Positions 5,068 to 60,477 of a DNA stretch of 64,000 nt are shown here, in pieces. The DNA lies in NCBI RefSeq assembly GCF_011745625.1, contig NW_027191452.1, positions 806,001-870,000 on the forward strand. The letters are read 5' to 3'. This DNA comes from Cladosporium halotolerans (Eukaryota). The position numbers and the translations under genes are program-made. Under the pieces are notes generated by a model. That model did no database searches and had not been told where the DNA came from. It was given only the letters and a program-made list of their open reading frames with translations. Every line of letters starts with the position of its first letter. The stretch's first letter is position 1.

Positions 5068-6715
<1,648 letters not shown>

Positions 6716-23369: not shown

Positions 23370-24532
23370 GGTCGAACGGGTCTGTTCCAGTTCGACCGAT
23401 ACCTACTGTAGGCTTCCATTTGCTTGATGCGCGATGAGGTCCGCTTTACGAACATATAGGTTTGAGTGCTTGCTGTATGAAATCAGATCCCGTGTCACAA
23501 CCGAAGACAATCACACTGAAGCAAACCCAGGGGAGGGGAAGAGAAGACGGCGATTGAAGTTCCAAAAATGTTCGCGACGGAAGAAGCACCGCAAGGGCCG
23601 CCTACTCCCACGCTTTGACTGTGAATTTTTTTCACCCATCAGCTATGGTATGGTATGGTAGTAGTAGTAAGATTAACAACGGCCAAGAACGAGCGCGTAT
23701 TCACAGACACCGAGTCCCAGAGAAAAGAGAAACCTTTCCTTATCCGAGCCCGGATGTGTGTGATTAAACAGAAGTAGTAAACAAAAAAGGATAGTAAGCC
23801 AAGCCCGCGAGAAAAAACGAAGAAACTCCCCAACCCAATCAAAAAGGAAAGCTGAATAATCTGATTACTCCAATACTGTGGTGGTTGTGAGCAGCGCTTG
23901 AGAAAGAGACTGCTGGACTCTTTTTTGGTAGTGGTGAATAGAAAGGAAAAGGACGCTTGCTAAGTACGAGGAAAGAGGTGTGCGGTCGCACGGGTAGATG
24001 CCTCCAGGCAATTGGATCACCAGCAGCAGAGAGCGCGGCGGATGCGGCGGCGTTTGCTTTGGCGCGGTGTGCGATCTAGCGGTGCTAGGTCGAGGTTCGA
24101 GTCTGAGACCGTGCGTGCATCAACGTCCAAGTAGGGCTTGCAGGTGATGATTGCACCGCTGATTTCGGGCACTTTACTCAATGGCAGGGACTTGACTTCG
24201 AGCCCACGGTGGCATGCGAAGGCATTGTCGGCGCTGAATGACCGGTCGTGCCATCTAGTGAGTGCTACGAAGTAGTCTCTGCGTTCAGGCTGTCGCCCTA
24301 GTACCTTGTAGAGGTGGCGAACCAAATCCATAACGACGGCATCCTGCTGCGCATGGACGCAAAGCTTTGCAACGGCATCTAACCCGTCGAAAACCAACTG
24401 CAGACAGCGCATGCGTTCCGGATGCTGCCAGAAGACCTTCGAGCGGGTGTTGAATTCAATGAACTCGGGGGTCGGGGATTCGGCCTTCCGCCAGATGGAT
24501 CCAGTTCTTTCAGCGGCCGTCGATGAATCCCA

Positions 24533-27022
24533 CTAAGCGTTCTCGAACGGATTGCGGAAGATGATCGCACTGGTGTTCTCGAGTGGGATCTCGCGGAGCA
24601 GGTCGACACCCTCGATGGGGACGCCGTCGTTCTCGCCACCTTTGCGCATACCGAAGTCGATGATCAGGACGCGGCCGTCTTGACTAGTGGCGACAATGCG
24701 TCGATAGTCTGACTTGGCAGCGAGCATCCAGCTTGTGGTCCACTCTTCGGCGCGCCAGATCTCCTCGCCCGTCTCGAAGTCGTAGACGCGCAAGTCGAGA
24801 TCGTAAGAGCCGGAGACGACACGCTTGTTGGCGCTGTCGAGCCAGAGGGATCGCACCAGCTGAGAGTGACCGGTGAATTGAGCGACTTCGCGGCCGGTCT
24901 CGGTCTCGAACTTGTAGGTGATGTGGTCATTGCCGCCAGCGAGGACATACTTCATATCTTCGGAGAACTCGACTGCAGCGAGGCCACGTTCCTTAGCGGT
25001 GAACTCTTTGACAAGCTTATTGGTCTCAATGTTCCACAGGCGAGCGATGCCATCGCCGCTGGCGCTGACGAGGAACTTGCCGCGGAGCTGGACAGCATTG
25101 ACGGGGCCACGGTGGCCTTCAAGGGTACCCTTGATCTGGAAGGTCTCACGGTCCCAGACGAAGATCTTGCTGTCCTTGCTGCAGGAGATGATGTGCTTGG
25201 CGTCGAGAGCAACGTCGAGAACGCCGCCAGTGTGAGCGCGCAGACGCTGGATGGGTTCGTATGTCTTGATGTCCCAGACAATAAGATCGGAGTCCGAGGA
25301 CCCGGTGACCAGGATGTTCTCGTCGTATTGCAGGCAGAGAATGCTCGCGTCGTGCCAGTAGGCTGGGGTGTGGTAAATGCTGTTACCATAGACCGTGCCG
25401 TTGACGCTGGCCACGGCGCTGTGGAAGGATGGGTAGTCAACGGTGCGAAGTGGCTTCGGGCCTGGCACTGGCTTGACGTTAGGGCCGCCAATGACCCGGA
25501 TGCACTGCATGGTGTTGATATCCCAAACGCGGATAGTCCTGTCGCGGGAGCCAGTGATGATCTTCTCCTCGTCGAACTGTACACAGTAAACACTATCCGT
25601 GTGTCCAGAGAGGTATGTCGCCTTTCCAGACTGCTGCGCACCCATGCGCCATTGTCTCTCGAGCAGAGTGCGGGCACGGTACATCATCTTCCACTCTTGC
25701 TTGGGCATGTTCGGCTGGCCAGTACCAGGGCCGCCGACTTGCACGGGTGCAGGGTTTGTGTGAATCTGACGCTNNNNNNNNNNCTGCCAACGCCTGAAGA
25801 AGGCAGTGCGCCAAACAGACTCATCCTTGGCCAGGTGGTTCCAAGACCGACTGACTTGCGAGGCCGCGGCGAGCGAGGGACCGTCCAGGAGATCAAAGAT
25901 TGCAAGGTTGAGCTCTTGCGGAAGAATACTATTGACGAAGTCGATTCTTCCATCGTCAATGGGCAGAGGAGCTGGGGACATCTGGACGTCGCCGTCGCAA
26001 TCCCTCTGCGGAGAATCAAAACGGGCGTAGGTCGAAAGATCTGCTCCACTGTCTGCAGCGCTAGAAATAGATCCCAATCGCGAGCGTTGAGCGAAAGTGT
26101 CCTCTGGTGCGTCGCCTTCAACGGTGGTGTCAAAGCTGAAGTTTGTATTGAAGCGAGCAGCGGACTGCCTTGCGCTTTCACCACCGATGGGCCAGTTCAG
26201 CTTGGGCGCCGAGCGAGGGGCCTGGCCGAAGGGAGGAGCCGGAGTGTCCTTGCGCTCTGCGCTGGAAAGAGTAGCGGTGCGTGACTTCTTCGGGCGTTCG
26301 TCGCCGTGGATGCCGTTCCGCTTGGTGGGTGAGGTCTGCAAAGGAAGCAGCGAATCCGGGAAGAGTGAGTGGCTTCCCTCTGAGCCGCTGGGCTTCCTGC
26401 TCCTCAGGTATGTCTGACCACTGGTGATGTTTGTGCCAAAATCATGCATCTTCTTCACGGACCTGCTCAACCGACGACTCAGAGAGCTCTTGCGAGACGG
26501 CTCGTCGGCACTCGAAGGGGAGGTGGCGCCAGTCGGAGCGGTAACTGTGGCATTGGACGAGACACCAACGTGCGACAGGAAGCTCGATGAGCTCGGCTGT
26601 GAGTTTCCGATGGGCCTGGTGAGCTGTCTTCTCCGCGACCTCTGGCTGCGCCAAAATGCCAGCCTGGACTCCTCGGTCGGGAAGTGCGGATCGCGAAGGA
26701 CGTTCGGGTTATACTCCTGAGGGCGGAAGTCAGACCAGCTCATGCTCGGCATGTGAACCTTATTGCTGGAGGTGAAGTGGTCATCGTGGTCGGATGATGT
26801 TGAGAGGTCGGCGGCGGCATCGTCACGCGAGAGGGACGTCCTCCCGGCAGGTGCGCTGGAGAAATCAAGACCTTGCATGTGCTGCTGCTGCTGCTGCTCC
26901 TCCTCTTGTCGGGCCTGGCAGGGGTTGTTGAAAGGCATGGTGGACGAGTGCACGGTGTGTGGGCGCTGGTCGGGCATGCGCGGGCGTTGCAGGAAGGAAG
27001 ATCCAGAGTATTCGTAGTTCAT
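24533..27022 (-). CDS. F-box/WD40 SCF substrate receptor, FWD-1/beta-TrCP-like
   Basis: F-box ILPQELNLAIFDLLDGPSLAAASQVSRSW. WD repeats GHTDSVYCVQFDEEKIITGSRDRTIRVWD, HTGGVLDV, GHRGPVNAVQL..VSASGD and GHSQLVRSL. First ATG at 27022 (the ORF track extends to a TTG at 27166). Contains a 10-N gap. Confidence 0.9.
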   Translation of the reverse strand: MNYEYSGSSFLQRPRMPDQRPHTVHSSTMPFNNPCQARQEEEQQQQQHMQGLDFSSAPAGRTSLSRDDAAADLSTSSDHDDHFTSSNKVHMPSMSWSDFRPQEYNPNVLRDPHFPTEESRLAFWRSQRSRRRQLTRPIGNSQPSSSSFLSHVGVSSNATVTAPTGATSPSSADEPSRKSSLSRRLSRSVKKMHDFGTNITSGQTYLRSRKPSGSEGSHSLFPDSLLPLQTSPTKRNGIHGDERPKKSRTATLSSAERKDTPAPPFGQAPRSAPKLNWPIGGESARQSAARFNTNFSFDTTVEGDAPEDTFAQRSRLGSISSAADSGADLSTYARFDSPQRDCDGDVQMSPAPLPIDDGRIDFVNSILPQELNLAIFDLLDGPSLAAASQVSRSWNHLAKDESVWRTAFFRRWQXXXXRQIHTNPAPVQVGGPGTGQPNMPKQEWKMMYRARTLLERQWRMGAQQSGKATYLSGHTDSVYCVQFDEEKIITGSRDRTIRVWDINTMQCIRVIGGPNVKPVPGPKPLRTVDYPSFHSAVASVNGTVYGNSIYHTPAYWHDASILCLQYDENILVTGSSDSDLIVWDIKTYEPIQRLRAHTGGVLDVALDAKHIISCSKDSKIFVWDRETFQIKGTLEGHRGPVNAVQLRGKFLVSASGDGIARLWNIETNKLVKEFTAKERGLAAVEFSEDMKYVLAGGNDHITYKFETETGREVAQFTGHSQLVRSLWLDSANKRVVSGSYDLDLRVYDFETGEEIWRAEEWTTSWMLAAKSDYRRIVATSQDGRVLIIDFGMRKGGENDGVPIEGVDLLREIPLENTSAIIFRNPFENA
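25774..25783. other. Assembly gap (10 N)
   Basis: Run of n inside the F-box/WD40 CDS. Confidence 1.
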
Positions 27023-34019: not shown

Positions 34020-34704
34020 CAGTGTTTGCATCTGGCCAACCTCAAGAGTGCTATGTTGCTCGACTTTGGGATCGGGATCGCGGCCACATGCACTTTCGTG
34101 GCCAGGCTCCCAAGAATCCGCCGTGCTATTTGGCCAAATGGCCGGGTATCCGTTTGATTGTGCAAGGATACATGCTACGAGGAACGAAGACACGAAGCTT
34201 CACGGAATACTTTTCTGTCATATTTTGATTAGAGATACCCATGAAAATAGAAAGATAATTCGTCGATGTTGGGGAATTAGACGGGCGCATGTTGCCAGGT
34301 TCATCAGCTGAAAACATTCGGATTTTTTGTCTTCACGATACAATTCACCCTCCGGTACACGATTTCAGTTGCTTCTGACCTGAACAACCATGCCATTCGT
34401 GTTTGACTTGCAAAATCATCTGCGAGCGAAGGCGTTCCACGCATGTTGTATTCAGATATCAGATGGGCACACGCCAATGGAGCAGGATGTACATACAGAT
34501 AAGCGCTGCCCGAAATCGAAAGCGTCTACTATCAATCAAAGTACGTCATTGATGCTGTTGATTGACCGCTTACCTAGGTATGAGGTACTCAAGAATTGTT
34601 TCCACAAGTCACGGCTTTCAATTCTCAAAGATTCAACTTTCTGAATTTATTGGGGGCATTTCTCATTTAGCACCTCTCAGGATAAAGATTTTCGAGATAG
34701 CGTC

Positions 34705-35406
34705 ATGCTGTTCCGAGCTCTCGCGGTGCTAGCAGTAACAACGGCGGCGGCGGCGGCCCACGGTCATGATAGCCACGCCCACGAGCAGTCCATCCTCGCC
34801 AATGACGAAATCACCGTAAATCTGGACGTAAGAGAACACTGGATGCGAGTAGCCATCCAAGCCCTCTACGACCTGGTCTCGCCCTGTCCGTTCAGCGCAT
34901 TCGGCACGGCCGTAGTCAACCACACTTCCTCCACCGGACCTGGCGAACTCATCTGCATCGCAGCAAACACCATCGCGGACGACGGCAACCCGACCCTGCA
35001 CGGCGAGATAGCAGCCATCAACAACTGTACCACGGTCCTGCGGGATTCAGACGGCCCCTTCAAGCTGTCGCCGGAAGAAACGAGCCAGGCCTGGAAGCAT
35101 CTCAGCCTGTACACCACCGCGGAAGCCTGCCCCATGTGTGCCACCGCTATCCGATGGGCTGGATTCAAGGAATATGTTTACGCCACGAGCAGCGAGACGC
35201 TCATGGAATCTGGCTGGCCTCAGATGAGTATCAACAGCAGGGAGGTCTTTCGCAGGAGCGGCATGGTTGAGCCCTCTACGGCCATCTTGACTGATGTTCT
35301 GTATGGAGAGACGGATCCATTGTTCAGCTGGCAGTTCGACTCTCGCGCACCATGTCCGGCGGGCTGCTCACGCCGTGTACAGGGCGAGGCGTGTAGTCCT
35401 TTGTAG
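34705..35406 (+). CDS. Secreted cytidine/guanine deaminase-like zinc protein
   Basis: Signal peptide MLFRALAVLAVTTAAAAA. Deaminase motifs PFSAFGTAVV, LHGEIAAI (HxE) and TTAEACPMCA (CxxC). Confidence 0.85.
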   Translation: MLFRALAVLAVTTAAAAAHGHDSHAHEQSILANDEITVNLDVREHWMRVAIQALYDLVSPCPFSAFGTAVVNHTSSTGPGELICIAANTIADDGNPTLHGEIAAINNCTTVLRDSDGPFKLSPEETSQAWKHLSLYTTAEACPMCATAIRWAGFKEYVYATSSETLMESGWPQMSINSREVFRRSGMVEPSTAILTDVLYGETDPLFSWQFDSRAPCPAGCSRRVQGEACSPL

Positions 35407-52286: not shown

Positions 52287-53090
52287 TCAGTCCTGCTTTA
52301 TCGCGTCCGCGAACTTTCCCCAGACGCGGGAGAACTCCTGGTAGCCCTCCTGACCCCACAGGAAGCCGCTCTTGAAGCCACGGTCAATGAGGATCTGGGC
52401 CTGCTCTGCAGGGCCGCCGTCGTTGGCATCGCCCTCATAGCGCATAATCATGACGCTCGACTTGTGGTGGAGGTCCCAGGGGATGGCCTCGCGGGTCGGG
52501 TCCATCCACCAATTGTAGCCGGTCTCGAAGGCGGTGACGGTGTCAGCGTAGTCGTAGAACTCCGATGGGATGGTGGTGCCCGGGTTGGTCCAGATCTGAA
52601 TGCCGTTGGGGAAGGCGCCGTGGATGGCGTCATGGACGGACTTCATGTAGTCGAGCTTGTCGAGCTCGGAGGGCGCTTCGTCGACGAAGATGCCGTCGAG
52701 GTGGATGTCCTCGCCCGAGTGCGAGTTCCACTGCGCGTAGTTCTCGGCATCGGCCTGGATGTCAGAGATGGAGCGGTCGGTGAAGCCGGTGCGGAGGTAG
52801 CCGTAGACGTGAGCGTTGCTCGCGGAGTTCAACTTAGCTACACCACCGGTGTAGTCGGAGTTGGGCGGGTACTCGCCAGGGCCAGAGTCGGGGTTGATGA
52901 TGATGTTGAACTGGGTCTGGGGGTTGTCGGAGAGAGCGCGGTAGACCTCGTCCCAGGCTCCATCGATGGGCCAAGAGTAAAGAGGAAGATCAACAGCGAG
53001 GTTCGGGTTGGGAGCAATGCGCTTCTTCAGGGGCGCAGCAGTGGCGACAAGCGCAGCGCTGGCCGCGACGATGAAGTCCCTCAAATACAT
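52287..53090 (-). CDS. Spherulin-4 family (GH135, Sph3-like) secreted hydrolase
   Basis: LPLYSWP, IINPDSGPG, YGYLRTG, LDGIFVDE, WTNPGT and TAFE. Signal peptide followed by a dibasic KKR. Confidence 0.85.
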   Translation of the reverse strand: MYLRDFIVAASAALVATAAPLKKRIAPNPNLAVDLPLYSWPIDGAWDEVYRALSDNPQTQFNIIINPDSGPGEYPPNSDYTGGVAKLNSASNAHVYGYLRTGFTDRSISDIQADAENYAQWNSHSGEDIHLDGIFVDEAPSELDKLDYMKSVHDAIHGAFPNGIQIWTNPGTTIPSEFYDYADTVTAFETGYNWWMDPTREAIPWDLHHKSSVMIMRYEGDANDGGPAEQAQILIDRGFKSGFLWGQEGYQEFSRVWGKFADAIKQD

Positions 53091-55226
53091 GATTTTATGT
53101 TTTCGTGAAAACGTGTGTTTATCGTCTTGCAGATGTGGAAGCGAGTGAGTTAAGCGGTGAATGAGTGACTGGATGCCGTCAAGGCAAACGTGTTGTAATG
53201 AATGACTGGATGCAGCTTATCAAAAGCGCAGGATGGATAGCAAGTGCTTGGGGCTGGGTGGAGGGTAGAAGCTCAGAGCCTACTTCATCGTCGTGGCCGG
53301 GGAGACACCCAGCCTTTTGTATACTACGACGCCTCGAGAGGGGTTGTGTGGCCAGCCCGGGCCAAGGATGTCTGGCCAGAGTAGGACCGCGGACTCCCAC
53401 ATCGTGCATGGAACAGCCTTGGGGACACAAGCCGACACGTCAAGTGGTGACATGCACAAAGGAAATTAGGCGCAAGCAGGCGCTGCTGGGCGGGTAGACT
53501 GCACCTTGAAGCGGGCGGTTAGGCGTGTGGTGGAGGTGAGGTGTGGTGGGCGTGCCGGAGCAACAGCGCCAGAATCGCGGAGGACACGGGAAGGCTGGCA
53601 TCTGAAACGCCCCAGGCCACACTGCAATCTCAAACGTGCAGCCCTACGGCGTGATTATTGACGATTCGGAGACGGCTGACTTCCTCCGCTGCGAACTTTG
53701 AACAGCCTGGTTAACGTACGCGATGACATACATACTGTCATTGGGCAAAAGCAATGAGAAACCCACCGCAGAAGCGCTATTCGTCCGCACCACCTTCCGA
53801 GAGGACCACAACGCCAGGATGATATTCGGACCATCTGCACTATCGCCAATCTCTGAAAAAATGCACACGTAACAAATCGGCATGCCCGTCTGTCATCGAC
53901 CAGGAACGGAAAATGCTGGAACATGTCTCCGTCAACTCTCGCTCTTGCCCCCTGAAAGTGCCGGCCTGCGGCCGCCCATGATCAACACAGTCAGGTCAGA
54001 GGAAGCCACATTCGCCCAAACAGGACTGCCAAGTGCACCAACATCAGCCGCCCTACAGCCTGCAATTTCTGAACGCGCCCTTGGTGCTTTTCATGCACTT
54101 GGCGTGCTTCATCCCACAGAAGGCGTTTACAGAGAACTCTTGTCGCGATCAAATCCCGCATCGGAGAGCGGTCCCTAACATGAGAATGGTACCATATGGC
54201 GAGGAGAGGACCCGTCGACGGGGGCGGCAAATTAGCGACTCCCGAGGCGCAGGCTCGAGGGGCTGATCGATCAGATGCGGCTCCCGACAGAGTCTGGACC
54301 TTTTACGTTTTCACTTCAAATCCTGCCACCTGACAGATTTGGCGACCATTCCTTCTCAAGTCGAGGGTCGGTCGCTTCATCTCAGAGAACAGCTGACAGA
54401 GAGTCACGAACTACGGCAATGTTTGACGAAAGCTTATGAGATCAAGTTGGGATGGTGTCTGGAGCCCCGCCCGGGGCGCCCGCCTTCGCGGTTCTCGATC
54501 CCGTACACGCCATTGTAGCTCGCATTTCACTCGGCGATTTCTTACGACGGCGGCGGAACGATTCTCGCGAGATGCGGACGCTGCCATGTGACTTTCATCA
54601 TGTGTTTTGCGTGATTAGCCTGGGTTGGCTTATTAATGGTCAAGCGATGTTACCTGTGCGACTCGAACGCGCCTATGACAGGAAGTCTACAGCCTGCCAA
54701 GGGCGTGTTGAGTGAGCTGTCCGCGGTAGATGTTGTCGCACGACATAATGCCTGACAGCCGCCGCGGGCATGTTGTGTAACCTCACACAGCGATGGCAGT
54801 CGTTTGTTGTGTCGCGGAGTGGCGGCGCACCATCTCAGTTCAGATTGTTTGTATGGTCCAACCTGGTCGGAGCAAGATGAATGTCGAGCACAGCCGTCGT
54901 AACGTACTTATCAAGGGCAATTTAAGAGGAGAGGACAATAAATCAGATCGGAGCGTTACAAATGGATGAACGGAAGCATTTGGACGTTGACGAAGAGGTA
55001 CAAGGATTATAGATCTAAAAAGACAGCTAAAAAAGAAGCATAGCTGGCATGCGAGTGCAGTACTCCTATTGTCGCGCTCAACCTAGAGCGGTATTTCCCC
55101 ACCAAACGACCACCCCATGCTAAAATCGTTCGCCTTCCAACACAGAAAGACATTAGGTTGTAATGAAAGGATAGTCGACGAGTGTGTCGGCTAGAGAACA
55201 AAAAGAAATGTTCGGCACCGAGCATT

Positions 55227-57623
55227 CTAGAGCCTGATGGGACTCGCCAGGGTGAACTTGACGGCCGAACCAGACATGGAGGCCCACATGATGACGGGCT
55301 CAGTTCCAACCTTGTCCCTAGTAGCCGTGCCCGACGAAGTCGGGGCAGTGCCAGGGAAGGTCACGGGGATGGTAGCGCCGCAGCGGTTGCCCTCGGTCGT
55401 GACGGTGACAGCGGTGATGGTCTTGCCGTCGTTGGAGTAGTTGTAGGCAAGCTTGGGCTTGCATTGGTCACGAGCCATGCGGTCAATAAACTTCTGCGCA
55501 AGGTCATCCTGCTTCTGGGAAATGATGGGCCAGTTCGTCAGGCGAGTCATCTCCTGAACAATAGTCTCAGTCCATGCCTGAAGAAGGGAAAGCTGGCCGC
55601 TCTGTGAGCCAACGGTTATACTGTCCACATCGGTCTGGCGCAGGTTGGCCTGGTGGAACATGAAGCCATCCTTGCGGAGACCAAGAAGGTAACGAGTGGC
55701 AGTGTTGCGCTCAAAGGTCAGGAGATCCTGGAAGGTACCTCTGCCAGAGGCAGTATCAATCCACTCCTGAAGGGTGCAGTCAGGGAGATCGCAATTCCAG
55801 TAGATGGTGGTGGGCCAGCGAGGGACAATGGTCAAGCCGGCGTAGCCATTGTTCGCAGTAGTTGTGACCAACGGCCAGTGCTCGTTGAACGGGCTGAGCA
55901 GCTTCGGGCGAGAGTTGTCACCAACAGCGTTCGTGATGCCGTTAGTGATCCAGGCGCGAATCGCATCACCATTGTGCAGACCAGTGATGGCAGGGGGGAC
56001 CAAGCCCTTAGCCGAGAACTTGTTACCGGCGGAGATGCCGATTTGTCTAAGCCAAGCCTGGTTGAACACGATCTCCTTGTTGGCATCGCTGTACGTGAGG
56101 TTATTCTGAGGCAAATGAGTGAAGGTGTGAGAAAGGTGCGCGAAGGCATTGCGGTTGGCGGCCGTAGTGAACCAGGTGGCGAGGGGGTCGTTCTTGGCGC
56201 AAGCAAGGCTCCAAGTGTACGAAGCTGGAGTGACAGGCCATTTATCCTCGCCACTGCCAAGGGGCTTCTGGAACTCTTGCGGGGTTGCGGGGGGGTAGTC
56301 ATAGTATATTGCGTTGTCAGGGTTGCAGGCCGTGGTGTCGGTGGAGACAGCCTCGATGATATCACCGTTGCCGTTGTGAGCGAGCTCGACGAAGAATCTG
56401 GACCCGGCCGGCATGCGAGTGTTGATGTTGGTCGTCCAAGTCACGTGAGCCTGGAGGTCAGCCGGCCTGAGGCGGAACATTTTGCCAGCAGGCTTGTACA
56501 TTCCCGTCGACAGGTGGACGTCATCGATCTGAGTGCTGAGGTAGGTCTTGCGCGCACCAAGGAACAGACCACGAGTCATCCAGTGAATGTAAGCGTGCTG
56601 CAGGAAGTTGGAGGTGGGAGACCATTCGGTAGCCCAGCTGCCGAACCAAACCATCTGCTGACGACCGGCGAAGTTGTTAATCACAGCAGCGGTGGTGTCA
56701 CCGGTGAAGGGACCACCTGGACCGTACTTCGCAAATTCCCAGGTGGTGGTCCTGTCGGTGATAGCGGCAGGGTAGTGGTACATATTCTTAGTACTCATGG
56801 TGGCTCCCGTCTTGATGTTTGCGGTGGCGAAACCAGTAGCATTGGTGATGCTGATCAGCTGCTCAACGTCGGAACCGCAACAGCCAACACCCTGCGCAGC
56901 GGTGGTGGTGCCGAACGCTGGTTGAGGGTAGGCATCAATACGGACGAAGCGAACGCCAAACGCGAGCTGATAGGCGTAGATTTCGTTGTACTGCTCGGGG
57001 CTGATACCACTGTGCCATTCGCCGCCATCGTATTCGTAAGCGAGTTCGCTGAGGGAGAGGATGCCGCCGTATTTGCCCTGGGTCCTCGAGGTATTGAGGG
57101 CTGGAAGCTGGAAGTTCTCTTTAGGGACGCGTACGATCTCGTAAGGGATGCCGTATCCATCAAGGCCGGAAGTAACAGAGTAAGTGTTGTCACCCTCTCT
57201 AACGAGGATGAGGATGGTTGAATCCACGGTCGCAGCCACAGCCGGGGCGACAGATGCAGAGGGAGTGGGTGTGACAACGGCGGAAGAGGTCGCACCATCG
57301 CTAGTGACGGAGGCGGGTGCAGGTGCGGCGGAGGTGCTGCCAGTGACGGTAGTGACCACGGGAGCAGTTTCGGTCAGAGAGATCGTTTGCTCTTCATCGG
57401 CAGCGGCCGTGTCGGAAGCAGAGGCATCGCTCGACGTAACGACGCTTGAGACGTCACTGCTAGACGATACTATCAATGCAGTGCTACTAGCTTGGTCCGT
57501 GGTGGTGGTAGAAAGCGCCGTCGAGACTGGCTCGGTTGATTGAGAATTGCCTGTTCTGCACGAGGCGAGGGCGATGCCAAGGGCGGCTGCAAGCCTGCAG
57601 ACAGCTCTGGTTGACCAGACCAT
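55227..57623 (-). CDS. agd3: Galactosaminogalactan de-N-acetylase Agd3-like (CE18)
   Basis: 798 aa. Signal peptide, Ser/Thr-rich N-terminus, then GLDGYGIPY, TQIDDVHL, HNGNG, SHTFTH, PPAITGLHNGD and FMFHQANL. Divergent from the GH114 gene. Confidence 0.85.
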   Translation of the reverse strand: MVWSTRAVCRLAAALGIALASCRTGNSQSTEPVSTALSTTTTDQASSTALIVSSSSDVSSVVTSSDASASDTAAADEEQTISLTETAPVVTTVTGSTSAAPAPASVTSDGATSSAVVTPTPSASVAPAVAATVDSTILILVREGDNTYSVTSGLDGYGIPYEIVRVPKENFQLPALNTSRTQGKYGGILSLSELAYEYDGGEWHSGISPEQYNEIYAYQLAFGVRFVRIDAYPQPAFGTTTAAQGVGCCGSDVEQLISITNATGFATANIKTGATMSTKNMYHYPAAITDRTTTWEFAKYGPGGPFTGDTTAAVINNFAGRQQMVWFGSWATEWSPTSNFLQHAYIHWMTRGLFLGARKTYLSTQIDDVHLSTGMYKPAGKMFRLRPADLQAHVTWTTNINTRMPAGSRFFVELAHNGNGDIIEAVSTDTTACNPDNAIYYDYPPATPQEFQKPLGSGEDKWPVTPASYTWSLACAKNDPLATWFTTAANRNAFAHLSHTFTHLPQNNLTYSDANKEIVFNQAWLRQIGISAGNKFSAKGLVPPAITGLHNGDAIRAWITNGITNAVGDNSRPKLLSPFNEHWPLVTTTANNGYAGLTIVPRWPTTIYWNCDLPDCTLQEWIDTASGRGTFQDLLTFERNTATRYLLGLRKDGFMFHQANLRQTDVDSITVGSQSGQLSLLQAWTETIVQEMTRLTNWPIISQKQDDLAQKFIDRMARDQCKPKLAYNYSNDGKTITAVTVTTEGNRCGATIPVTFPGTAPTSSGTATRDKVGTEPVIMWASMSGSAVKFTLASPIRL

Positions 57624-59373
57624 GATTGAACAAAATTGACCGAAGTCGAATAGAAGAAAAGAAGGAAAGTAGGGGAATGATGATAGCGAAAGAAAAGACT
57701 TTTGGAGGATAACACCAACTAGATAGATATAACAATCTGACAGGAGACCCCAAGGGCTGTGGAGGACTCACAACTTGCCGCGCTCGGGTCAGCCTTGGGA
57801 GGATAGCTGGATGCCGTCCCTCCACGCTCTGGGAATGGAAACATTTGGGACAGCTAAGACACGCGCCGTGCCATTGGCACTGCGCAGGGGGTCTCGCCTC
57901 GTCTGAACGTCTTGGATACTTGCCTTGTCGGGAGCTCGGCAGGGCAAAGGGACAGCGACAAGCCGGCGCCGGCGATATTCTCGAGCGAAGAGGCGTCCGC
58001 ACACGAGACGCATGGCTGTGGGCAGACTGGGCGACGGCGGCCGAGTCAGGCTGCGGTATTCTCCGGACGACGGATCCAGGGATCACCAGAGAGGCAGACG
58101 CGCGGATCGTGGCGAGTCGTGTGCTGGCGAGTGGCCCGTTTTGGGTTGATGGGAGGCCCCAGAAGCGAGAACGAGGGCCTGGCGCGGGCGAGTCGCCTGT
58201 CGCTGACCTCGTCCAGCGCCCGATTGGGAGTGAAGTGAAAAGAAGCCTGGTGCCGCATCGGGCATAGCGCGCTTGGGGGAGCAGTGCTATTTCGGCGCGC
58301 CGTGCGGCAGAGGGCCAGGGCCGCCCGCAGCTTCGAACGCAGGCGAGCCAGGCACTCCAGGCACCCGACGCCTCCCCGCCGCGCCAATGCAAATCCCAAA
58401 TCACAAGCGCTGCGACCCTGGATCCTTGGATGCAGCACGCCACCGCCCGCCGTCGTCGGCGCCCAGCCCGCACGTCAACAAGACGGACCCAAGGCGCTCC
58501 CAAAGCCTCCACAAGCCCGCCATCCACGTGGAGTCTCTGCCCTCTTCACCCGCCGTTCGCGCTGCTAAGCCTCGCGGCGAGCCGTCAGTCGCCGTCCATC
58601 GAAGCGTCTCGCCAGACCCTCGTGTGCCCTCCAAACTATCGCTCCACCGTGTGAACGCTGTCATGCACTCTGGCCGGCGCCGGCCTGGACGCTCGATCAC
58701 GCCGCTGTGACTTGCATGTACCCGCAGGCACAGCAATATTGGAGCATCCTTGCATCGCTGTCCTTAACATCGCCGTCGCTACTAACAATAACCTCACGCA
58801 GGTGGAGTCAGTGCTCCCCGCCCACCGTGCGAGCCTTTCCACACGGCTGCGAACCGACTCGGCGTCGAGCGCTCGCCATACGAGCAGCACGAGTCTGCCG
58901 CCTGCTTGATGTGGCGCTGAAGGCTCCGTCTAAAAATCTCACCGTCGAGGCATCGCACCAACCGTAGCCCACCGGCCGCCCCTCCGCGTAAAACCGTCAT
59001 TTCCAGCCGCCGCCCTTTGGCCACGCGTTGTCCGGCTGAGTGCACTATACAGGCTTACCCTCGACTTTATTGGCTAATCTCTGCGGGAAGAGTACATCCG
59101 TGCCAAAGCCAGCCCGTGATTCAGGAGGTCGCCCAGGAGAGATATCTCCAAGCTGGGCCCAGCGGATGCCAATGTTCGCCTACTCAAACTCGATCCACAT
59201 TACTATTTGCTTGTGCTAATTCTCCTCCTAGTGTGTGGGGTCATCAACCCGCGATTGCAGATCGCAGATCACTCCAACACGACCTCCGCACCGCACTGCC
59301 GAGCCTCTGAAGCGTTAGACACGGCTCAATTCGGGAAGAAATCATCAAGACCTTGCATCATAGCTCACACGAC

Positions 59374-60477
59374 ATGCCCACATCAGATCGCGAGGCGTAC
59401 GCTGCGATGAAAGAGTCTCGGGCTACCGCCATGCCGTCGCAAGGTACGCCGCGGTATGGTCGTTTCTCTAGACGCACGGTCATACTGGCCGGCGTAGCGG
59501 CCGCCCTCATAATCATAGGACTGGCAGTCGGCCTTGGGGTGGGCCTTGGCATTGGAAACAGCAATGACAACGGCGAAACCGAGTCGTCGCCAACACCGAC
59601 TTCAATTCCGCCGCCTAGTGGAAACAGCACGTCATGGCAACCGGCGGTCAACAGCACCTGGCAGATCGTGCTGAAAGAACCGATCAAGATGTCATCGGAC
59701 AACCAGACTACGGACCCCGATGTTGAAATTTTCGACATCGATCTGTTCACCAACTCCAACGAGACCATCAGTCTGCTCCATGACCTGGGGAAGAAGGTGA
59801 TCTGCTACTTTAGCGGTGGTTCGTATGAACCGTATCGTCCAGACTCCGCACAGTTCCAGCAGTCTGTCCTCGGCAAGCCCTTGGATGGCTGGGACGATGA
59901 GAAATGGATCGATATTCGCAGTGAAAGCGTCCGCAATATCATGGCAGAGAGAATCAAGCTTGCTAAAGAGAAGGGCTGTGACGCTGTCGACCCGGACAAT
60001 GTAGACGGCTACGTGAGAATGCCAGATGACCACCGTCCCGCGAATCAACTGACTGATTTGCAGAACAACGACAACGGCCTTGACCTCACTGCAGAGGACA
60101 CGATCGATTACATGGGATACCTTGCCAACGTGACCAGCTCGTACAACATCTCGATCGGCCTGAAGAACGCTGGCGAAGTGCTGACAAACCTCACATCCGT
60201 CGTGCAGTTCTCCGTCAACGAGCAATGCGTCCAATACAAGGAGTGCGAGACTTTCGCCCCGATGATTCAGGCCGGCAAACCTGTCTTCCATATCGAGTAC
60301 CCGAAAGGTGCGCCTGGTGATATCTCGGGTAAGACGGCAGCGGACCATTGCTCGAGATCGGGCGCCGGAAGTGGCAGCGACGAGTTCAGCTCGTTACTCA
60401 AAGGCGAGCTTCTCGACGGGTGGGTTGAGTACTGTGATCGCACCACCTTCAACACGTCGATGATCATGGAGGAATAA
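59374..60477 (+). CDS. ega3: GH114 endo-alpha-1,4-galactosaminidase Ega3-like, N-terminal TM anchor, 2 exons
   Basis: TM segment (AAALIIIGLAVGLGVGLGIG), WQIVL, DIDLF, KVICYFSGGSYE, GCDAVDPDNVDGY, GLKNA, VNEQC and KPVFHIEY. In-frame 51-nt intron 60013..60063 (GTGAGA...CTGAC...CAG). Confidence 0.88.
   Translation: MPTSDREAYAAMKESRATAMPSQGTPRYGRFSRRTVILAGVAAALIIIGLAVGLGVGLGIGNSNDNGETESSPTPTSIPPPSGNSTSWQPAVNSTWQIVLKEPIKMSSDNQTTDPDVEIFDIDLFTNSNETISLLHDLGKKVICYFSGGSYEPYRPDSAQFQQSVLGKPLDGWDDEKWIDIRSESVRNIMAERIKLAKEKGCDAVDPDNVDGYVRMPDDHRPANQLTDLQNNDNGLDLTAEDTIDYMGYLANVTSSYNISIGLKNAGEVLTNLTSVVQFSVNEQCVQYKECETFAPMIQAGKPVFHIEYPKGAPGDISGKTAADHCSRSGAGSGSDEFSSLLKGELLDGWVEYCDRTTFNTSMIMEE

Follow-up and report, generated by a model that had tools for sequence, protein, structure and literature searches.

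A coding-like frame behind the TAG stop of a beta-TrCP-like F-box gene in Cladosporium halotolerans, a candidate for stop-codon recoding

Does the stop codon of a beta-TrCP-like F-box/WD40 gene in the fungus Cladosporium halotolerans always end translation, or is it conditionally recoded into a longer protein? The question arises from a stretch of 64,000 nucleotides (the window; NCBI RefSeq assembly GCF_011745625.1, contig NW_027191452.1, positions 806,001 to 870,000 of the forward strand). An earlier interpretation of these letters alone (the sequence-only reading) had noticed that the frame behind the TAG at 24535-24533 stays open for 171 sense codons, up to a TGA at 24019-24017 on the minus strand, and that only the last 131 codons appear as an open reading frame (ORF) of their own. 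Both observations were confirmed, with the sequence as given; the 131-aa ORF begins at codon 41, the first in-frame ATG of the extension. The host, Cladosporium, is indeed a Dothideomycete. Our analysis indicates a real, coding-like and lineage-restricted tail behind a structurally marked TAG, and recoding at this TAG is probable.

The ancestral stop and the frame behind it

The protein encoded upstream of the TAG contains an F-box and a C-terminal WD40 propeller, as in FWD-1/beta-TrCP, with profile matches at E 2.6e-12 (F-box-like) and 4e-37 (WD40). Its best natural PDB matches, beta-TrCP1/2 and Fbw7, are near-equal (190.7 vs 187.9 bits), and the database labels on its homologues read beta-TrCP or FBXW1/11. 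The nearest protein clusters include Cladosporium fusiforme (96% across the WD40 region), C. inversicolor and C. allicinum. Ten N at 25774-25783 interrupt the coding sequence (CDS) and keep its frame; since relatives read RRWQRQIH across this gap, it probably hides no extra residues.

The frame terminates with FRNPFENA-TAG, in the context GCT TAG TGG. NPFENA is also the C-terminus in the full-length members inspected (P0001, P0124, P0131) of a 12-member cluster and in the three next clusters. Coverage of the read-through query by the 120 best homologues is 64-75%, and close homologues terminate within a few residues of the window TAG. Judged by these alignments, the TAG is the ancestral terminus of the F-box gene, neither premature nor an error, and the event in question would therefore be stop-loss editing rather than the repair of a premature stop codon (PSC). 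An assembly error is ruled out by the relatives that terminate at NPFENA. A PSC pseudogene failed as well, as the tail region is matched by none of the 120 best homologues and the stop is the end of a complete protein. An 84-aa record labelled Klebsiella pneumoniae (P0144) groups with the fungal F-box family and is probably a contamination.

The probability of 171 open codons by chance, calculated from composition, is 0.001-0.003 per stop. Such a run is unusual for a single gene, but several are expected per genome; length alone is therefore weak evidence, and the codon-level signals carry the case. Among about 50 control termini, picked automatically from 464 kb of the own genome, long post-stop frames were mostly intron or antisense artefacts. 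Post-stop frames behind TAG were not longer than those behind TAA or TGA (medians 22.5, 21 and 22 codons; n = 18, 12 and 21, in a set contaminated by introns).

The codon log-likelihood of the extension amounts to 0.031 per codon, as compared with -0.124 +/- 0.038 for base shuffles (0/2000 as high) and -0.077 +/- 0.034 for dinucleotide shuffles (0/1000 as high). Both shifted frames score -0.13 per codon. The value corresponds to the 30th percentile among 282 real coding windows, and codons 1-40 alone also give a coding-type score (0.068).

Strain variation points in the same direction. Contigs of four public runs were aligned to the region, and the following counts refer to the variants listed, i.e. 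40 of 309 variants and 12 of 32 indels; for one strain-type contig these comprise 31 of its 32 differences. Nine of the 14 variants in the extension are synonymous (pN/pS, the ratio of non-synonymous to synonymous polymorphism, ~0.2; p 0.004 with the mutation types taken into account). The excess persists at p 0.027 if the count also includes four amino-acid variants for which proteins are the sole source and whose synonymous partners are unseen. All 12 listed indels fall outside the extension, including all three of X17. A sister lineage keeps the frame of codons 41-171 intact, 76-79% identical, with its stop unmoved and an in-frame 1-aa indel that is polymorphic. Neutrality would predict roughly 53% identity, an estimate based on 30 differences per 501 coding bases in a neighbouring contig that was inferred to belong to the same organism. 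By codon use and variation, the 171 codons behave like coding sequence under coding-type constraint. Directly past the TGA of the tail, seven substitutions fall within 34 nt (23979-24012); six of them are common to all other haplotypes aligned, sister lineage included.

We also considered that the tail is a neutral or decaying coding-like 3' untranslated region (UTR), a captured or formerly used block that is not translated and whose synonymous excess is part history and part chance. The synonymous excess (p 0.004-0.027), the intact frame and shared stop of the sister lineage, the position of all 12 listed indels (of 32) outside the extension and a parallel constrained tail in Friedmanniomyces (see below) make this unlikely, even though the tail is an orphan sequence missing from other Cladosporium groups, four of five changes on the window's branch are non-synonymous, indels are left without a position, and long open frames do arise by chance. 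A tail family was not found in Pfam (best E 0.015-0.19), among PDB sequences (0 matches) or in the ESM Atlas. A search of 1.8 billion representative sequences returned one match only, the sister lineage, and neither a paralogue nor a source copy was found in the own genome. Single matches to a prokaryote (L025) and a viral contig (L026) were seeded by short words and taken as chance. An antisense gene across the tail was rejected in view of stops in all three plus-strand frames, as was a transposon origin, with only 10-13 nt chance repeats and no terminal repeats.

Table 1. Features at the 3' part of the F-box locus, in positions of the window.
Feature	Position	Strand	Remark
F-box/WD40 (beta-TrCP-like) CDS	24536..27022	-	one exon as read, ~826-829 aa
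Canonical TAG stop; A at 24534 is the candidate for editing	24533..24535	-	orthologues terminate at the same place
Imperfect hairpin	24517..24550	-	prediction; CDS end pairs with first post-stop bases, UAGU in the loop
Extension codons 1-40	24413..24532	-	in frame, without ATG/GTG/TTG; listed strain variants at codons 30, 33 and 38, all synonymous
Extension codons 41-171 and TGA	24017..24412	-	identity 94-96% in other strains, 76-79% in the sister lineage; stop position shared
3' UTR landmark, common to other Cladosporium	23905..23920	-	core 617 nt behind the stop here, 170-283 nt in 10/11 other Cladosporium loci
RNA contig end zone	23598..23693	-	end of the RNA contigs from three studies but not of a probable DNA run; weak hint of an mRNA 3' end, downstream of the extension

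Orthologous stops, tails and the predicted hairpin

From a metagenome scan we retrieved 23 orthologous loci of other Cladosporium groups (labels inferred from nearest cluster matches) and more distant genera. The 22 that include the stop read TAG in 18 cases, TGA in three and TAA in one; a TGG in place of the TAG, which had been suggested as a further check in relatives, was found in none of them. Counted by lineage, TAG prevails in 9/12, as against 18/52 candidate termini of the own genome (p 0.005).

Two Friedmanniomyces-like loci (L018:773-1243, L019:5478-5948) likewise have a TAG in a predicted hairpin loop, followed by an in-frame tail of their own. This tail comprises 157 codons with coding-type codon use and shows a pN/pS of 0.34 (p 0.003). 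Annotation presents it in two ways, as part of a fusion whose intron looks false or as a 142-aa gene of its own. Across the stop, the NCBI models of Friedmanniomyces, Elasticomyces and a Rachicladosporium-cluster isolate place predicted introns that are inconsistent, and short and fused forms alternate; for the latter two (P0038, P0205-P0214, P0231), short and ~150-aa-extended versions are available as protein models only. False predicted introns across a stop are an artefact described for edited AMD1 (PMC5496914).

The window tail aligns colinearly with the tail of P0231 over 65 residues (4-10/2000 shuffles); for the sister-lineage tail the match is weaker (28-198/2000 shuffles), and whole-protein BLASTP missed the P0231 match. 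A relationship of these sequences is suggestive only. Homology was unsupported for the Friedmanniomyces tail (BLAST E 0.036, 48-72/2000 shuffles, discordant positions, HH probability 5.6%) and for the Elasticomyces tail (114-1205/2000 shuffles). The polybasic C-terminus with its CC motif, read as a possible targeting signal in the sequence-only reading, is too poorly conserved to be called one: KRRRIRRALCCW is changed to KPGRIRRALCCW in the sister lineage, i.e. partly kept, and is not conserved beyond this species pair.

The stop codon itself is embedded in a predicted hairpin (Table 1). The loop probability of the stop A in the window is 1.0, 1.0 and 0.77 at flanks of 20, 30 and 50 nt. At 30 nt, the prediction puts the stop A into a hairpin loop in 16/19 TAG loci and in none of four non-TAG loci, against a background of 201/600 random TAGs and 9/23 TAG stops of the own genome. 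When one locus per lineage was taken with 20-nt flanks, the loop probability reached at least 0.8 in 8/9 lineages, compared with 34-43% in the background (136/400 random TAGs, 10/23 own-genome TAG stops) and 0-5/9 at shifted positions (p 0.001 vs random TAGs, 0.007 vs own stops, 0.001 vs 3'-shuffles). In the minimum-energy fold the stop is in a loop in 7/9 lineages at 30 nt (p 0.009-0.02). The stem sequences vary between lineages. When the structure of L003 was imposed on the 10 aligned Cladosporium sequences, L003 among them, its pairs formed in 70.7% of cells, a count biased toward L003, vs 30-45% after sliding; in 5/19 pairs, two of them adjoining the loop, both sides have changed. The modelling therefore places the target A in a predicted hairpin loop that is conserved in orthologues, as in fungal stop-loss editing sites. 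In another orthologue (L015, stop ~2809-2811) a near-perfect long stem closes a 5-nt UAGUC loop, and the tail is merely 21 codons long.

The same arrangement is known from DBF2: the stop lies in a hairpin loop in 82% of Sordariomycete DBF2 genes vs <34% elsewhere, and a TAG-biased, loop-embedded stop is a mark of edited DBF2 (PMC13123824). Both Tad2/Tad3 (PMC11156358) and OLD enzymes (PMC12754623) reportedly prefer a hairpin loop with U at -1. The immediate context GCU UAG UGG, invoked by the sequence-only reading, does fit editing, but every UAG has U at -1 and G at +1 of its A, which leaves the G at +3 as the sole informative position.

Ribosomal readthrough, in which the UAG is occasionally read by a near-cognate tRNA and the unchanged RNA gives the same extended protein, would account for all coding signals as well as for the absence of edited contigs. 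Known leaky stop contexts include UGA-CUA and UAG-CAA-UYA. The context UAG-UGG of the window is not known to be one, and the stop is not of the UGA-CUA type; moreover, TAG rather than TGA predominates, with the lineage counts given above. The loop hairpin is not explained by readthrough either, because it would presumably be unwound before decoding. Altogether, readthrough seems improbable here. In fungi, functional readthrough yields cryptic peroxisomal isoforms by means of a short tail with a peroxisomal targeting signal (PTS1) behind UGA-CUA. The window shares with them the hidden C-terminal extension and differs in its UAG-U and its 171 codons.

Transcripts and possible products of the extension

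RNA contigs from three studies span the stop and the extension unspliced. They run past the extension to 23598-23693, and no splice joint over the stop is present in the contigs of four runs; assembled contigs lose rare variants, however, and can neither prove a single transcript nor reveal rare spliced or edited forms. Alternative splicing, in which the TAG, being a YAG, or an AG close to it would act as acceptor and the tail would be spliced in frame onto the WD40 region, is what the public gene models of three other lineages depict. Since these models disagree on the splice sites, joints are absent in four runs, a CTRAY branch motif is missing before the TAG here and in L018/L019, and the nearest good donor (GTATGC, 24651) would give a 119-nt intron that is out of frame, we regard this explanation as very improbable.

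The extension could also be expressed as a separate 131-aa protein from Met41, through reinitiation, a dicistronic message or an overlapping transcript merged in the contigs. Met41 is retained in the sister lineage, Friedmanniomyces has an annotated separate 142-aa ORF, and overlapping or polycistronic transcripts that are merged by short-read assembly occur in Zymoseptoria (10.1101/2023.04.26.537486). On the other hand, in two lineages the stretch between stop and ATG is in register and uninterrupted, and Met41 has a C at -3. The pre-ATG differences are synonymous in 5/5 cases, namely 3/3 listed variants before Met41 here and 2/2 differences before the first ATG in the Friedmanniomyces-like loci, and codons 1-40 have the coding-type score of 0.068. 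A separate protein is thus quite improbable, and the same synonymous differences support a fusion. Some fused product of the F-box gene and the tail, by whatever route, is on balance likely.

Possible conditional editing, its candidate machinery and its meaning

Among the possible routes we tentatively favour conditional stop-loss adenosine-to-inosine (A-to-I) editing of the UAG, giving an F-box isoform of ~1,000 aa, the likelihood of which falls just short of even. The UAG in the predicted hairpin loop would be converted into UIG and read as Trp, so that the edited message would encode the F-box protein with a 172-residue tail (Trp + 171). Editing might be triggered by the sexual stage, stress or a virus and be carried out by Tad2/Tad3 with an unknown cofactor or by one of five OLD-type deaminases; during ordinary growth most transcripts would remain unedited. 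Most likely the tail would act as a switch that determines how abundant a substrate receptor of the Skp1-cullin-F-box (SCF) ligase is or where it resides, analogous to the destabilising FgDbf2 tail. The constrained 171 residues may form a folded module.

The genome has candidates for such an activity. Five of its six OTT_1508 matches contain the HxE..CxxC catalytic motif and represent OLD-type deaminases. One OTT_1508 deaminase gene (L079:1953-2579; G000:C105, +) is followed 3 kb downstream by a co-oriented C2H2 frame with an in-frame TAG (5802-5804) before the fingers. This pair may be OLD-ZAO-like, and a nearby poly-A run may be an assembly artefact; folding did not find a stable hairpin at the C2H2 TAG. 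Another (L078:4748-9202; G000:C527) adjoins a gene for a double-stranded RNA-binding domain, a CCCH zinc-finger frame and a DDE transposase. Three DUF726 genes (Ame1 family) are present. In a check for the Ame1 residues MV 500-501, made without an Ame1 alignment, two of them read A-S and S-I at 31 and 30 residues before the presumed catalytic Ser, and the third gave no motif match.

A potential second target is an NDR/Cbk1-like kinase gene (L086:834-836; G000:C175:218333-218335, +) with an intron-free in-frame TAG in the catalytic domain, which is aligned gap-free to a Phe of NDR1 and Cbk1 and lies in a predicted hairpin loop (loop probability 1.0/0.83). Five of six kinase matches with a single TAG are intron-related, the NDR kinase being the exception. 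As it stems from a single assembly, this TAG could also reflect a pseudogene or an error.

Several points weigh against conditional editing of the F-box message. Neither a TGG allele nor an edited contig occurs among the 40/309 variants listed, in contigs that lose rare variants. The tail is matched by 0/751 longer candidate proteins and covered by none of the 120 best matches to the read-through query, so that a fused protein was not found in either set. Chance can produce a comparable frame: at L039:4212-4733 (+) a real-looking TGA is followed by 174 open codons with non-coding codon use. The window tail is missing from 11 other Cladosporium loci, in which the complete post-stop frames measure 20-42 codons; two frames reach contig ends, one with at least 115 codons and non-coding-like, one of 10. 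Four of the five non-synonymous variants are common to all other haplotypes and therefore arose on the window's own branch, where the tail looks neutral. Other strains carry the radical changes H60P, V137D and L116R. The commonest strain type has a 1-nt deletion and the sister contig 22 net inserted letters, both without a listed position; a frameshift in codons 1-40 is possible. As for the structure, the stability of the window hairpin is not unusual (z -0.48), a 161-nt fold puts the stop A into an internal bulge instead of a hairpin loop, and with 50-nt flanks the hairpin is kept in 4/9 lineages only. Flank lengths and lineage representatives were our own choice, and the pair count has the L003 bias mentioned above. 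The OTT_1508 matches reside on six other contigs, none on that of the F-box gene (C1), and the targets of OLD enzymes are mostly zao genes next to them (PMC12754623). The editing role of Ame1 has been reported as a Sordariomycete innovation (PMC11087585), and stop-loss editing has been argued to be mostly non-adaptive (PMC13684035). For the conditionally extended isoform proposed by the sequence-only reading this leaves a mixed picture: coding-type constraint, unspliced RNA cover and a predicted loop context speak for it, and an edited contig, a TGG allele or a fused protein was not found.

Comparison with known systems helps to place the locus. With Sordariomycete stop-loss editing of the FgDBF2 type it has in common a canonical TAG that is kept in relatives, a predicted loop and a lineage-variable tail, but the FgDBF2 tail is a 24-aa disordered degron, whereas 171 codons with sequence-level constraint are found here in a Dothideomycete (PMC13123824). 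The annotation words of the 403-gene F. graminearum stop-loss list contain no F-box/WD entry of matching length (PMC13123824 Dataset S1). The window locus resembles a Sordariomycete stop-loss site but is not classed as one, since the RNA change that defines such sites was not observed. PSC editing, as in PUK1, AMD1 and CHE1, also involves an in-frame UAG followed by coding sequence and false introns in gene models; the window differs, as its stop marks where a complete F-box/WD40 protein ancestrally terminates, and distant fungi have no homologue of what follows (PMC11156358, PMC5496914, PMC11169179, PMC10776026). The OLD-ZAO module of Neurospora crassa converts UAG into UIG in loops with U at -1, independently of the sexual stage, and OLD-type enzymes are present in the own genome; the F-box target, in contrast, is not a zinc-finger gene adjacent to a deaminase, and an OTT_1508 match is absent from its contig (PMC12754623).

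Two further parts of the window were noted. The deaminase at 34645-35403 (+) is of the dCMP/cytidine type (PF00383), not OTT_1508. At 52290-60474, genes for Spherulin4, an Agd3-type deacetylase and GH114 are adjacent, a set that we take to resemble the galactosaminogalactan cluster.

Stop-loss editing has so far been described in other fungal classes. The range of fungal classes with mRNA editing is described as an open question (PMC11156358, PMC7306014, PMC10776026), TAGs at PSC sites exist in other classes, with editing there given as undetermined (PMC10776026), and the OLD-ZAO review covers Eurotiomycetes, Sordariomycetes and one Basidiomycete (PMC12754623). Our literature search, in which few subscription papers were covered, found no report that this gene is recoded or that Dothideomycetes edit their mRNA. 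The window offers one base (24534), together with the NDR kinase TAG as a control gene, for testing mRNA editing in this class. In a wider scenario, which is somewhat less likely than not, Dothideomycetes would have their own UAG-restoring mRNA editing, independent of Sordariomycete Ame1. The beta-TrCP-like gene would then be an old hairpin-UAG switch in which lineages keep, swap or lose tails of 140-170 residues, the Cladosporium tail maybe being ancestral in Cladosporiaceae, as the colinear P0231 match hints. If conditional editing of the F-box message is true, a core SCF substrate receptor would have a hidden conditional isoform that is missed or mis-spliced in public annotation, and a tail under sequence-level purifying selection would bear on the debate whether stop-loss editing is adaptive or not (PMC13123824 vs PMC13684035).

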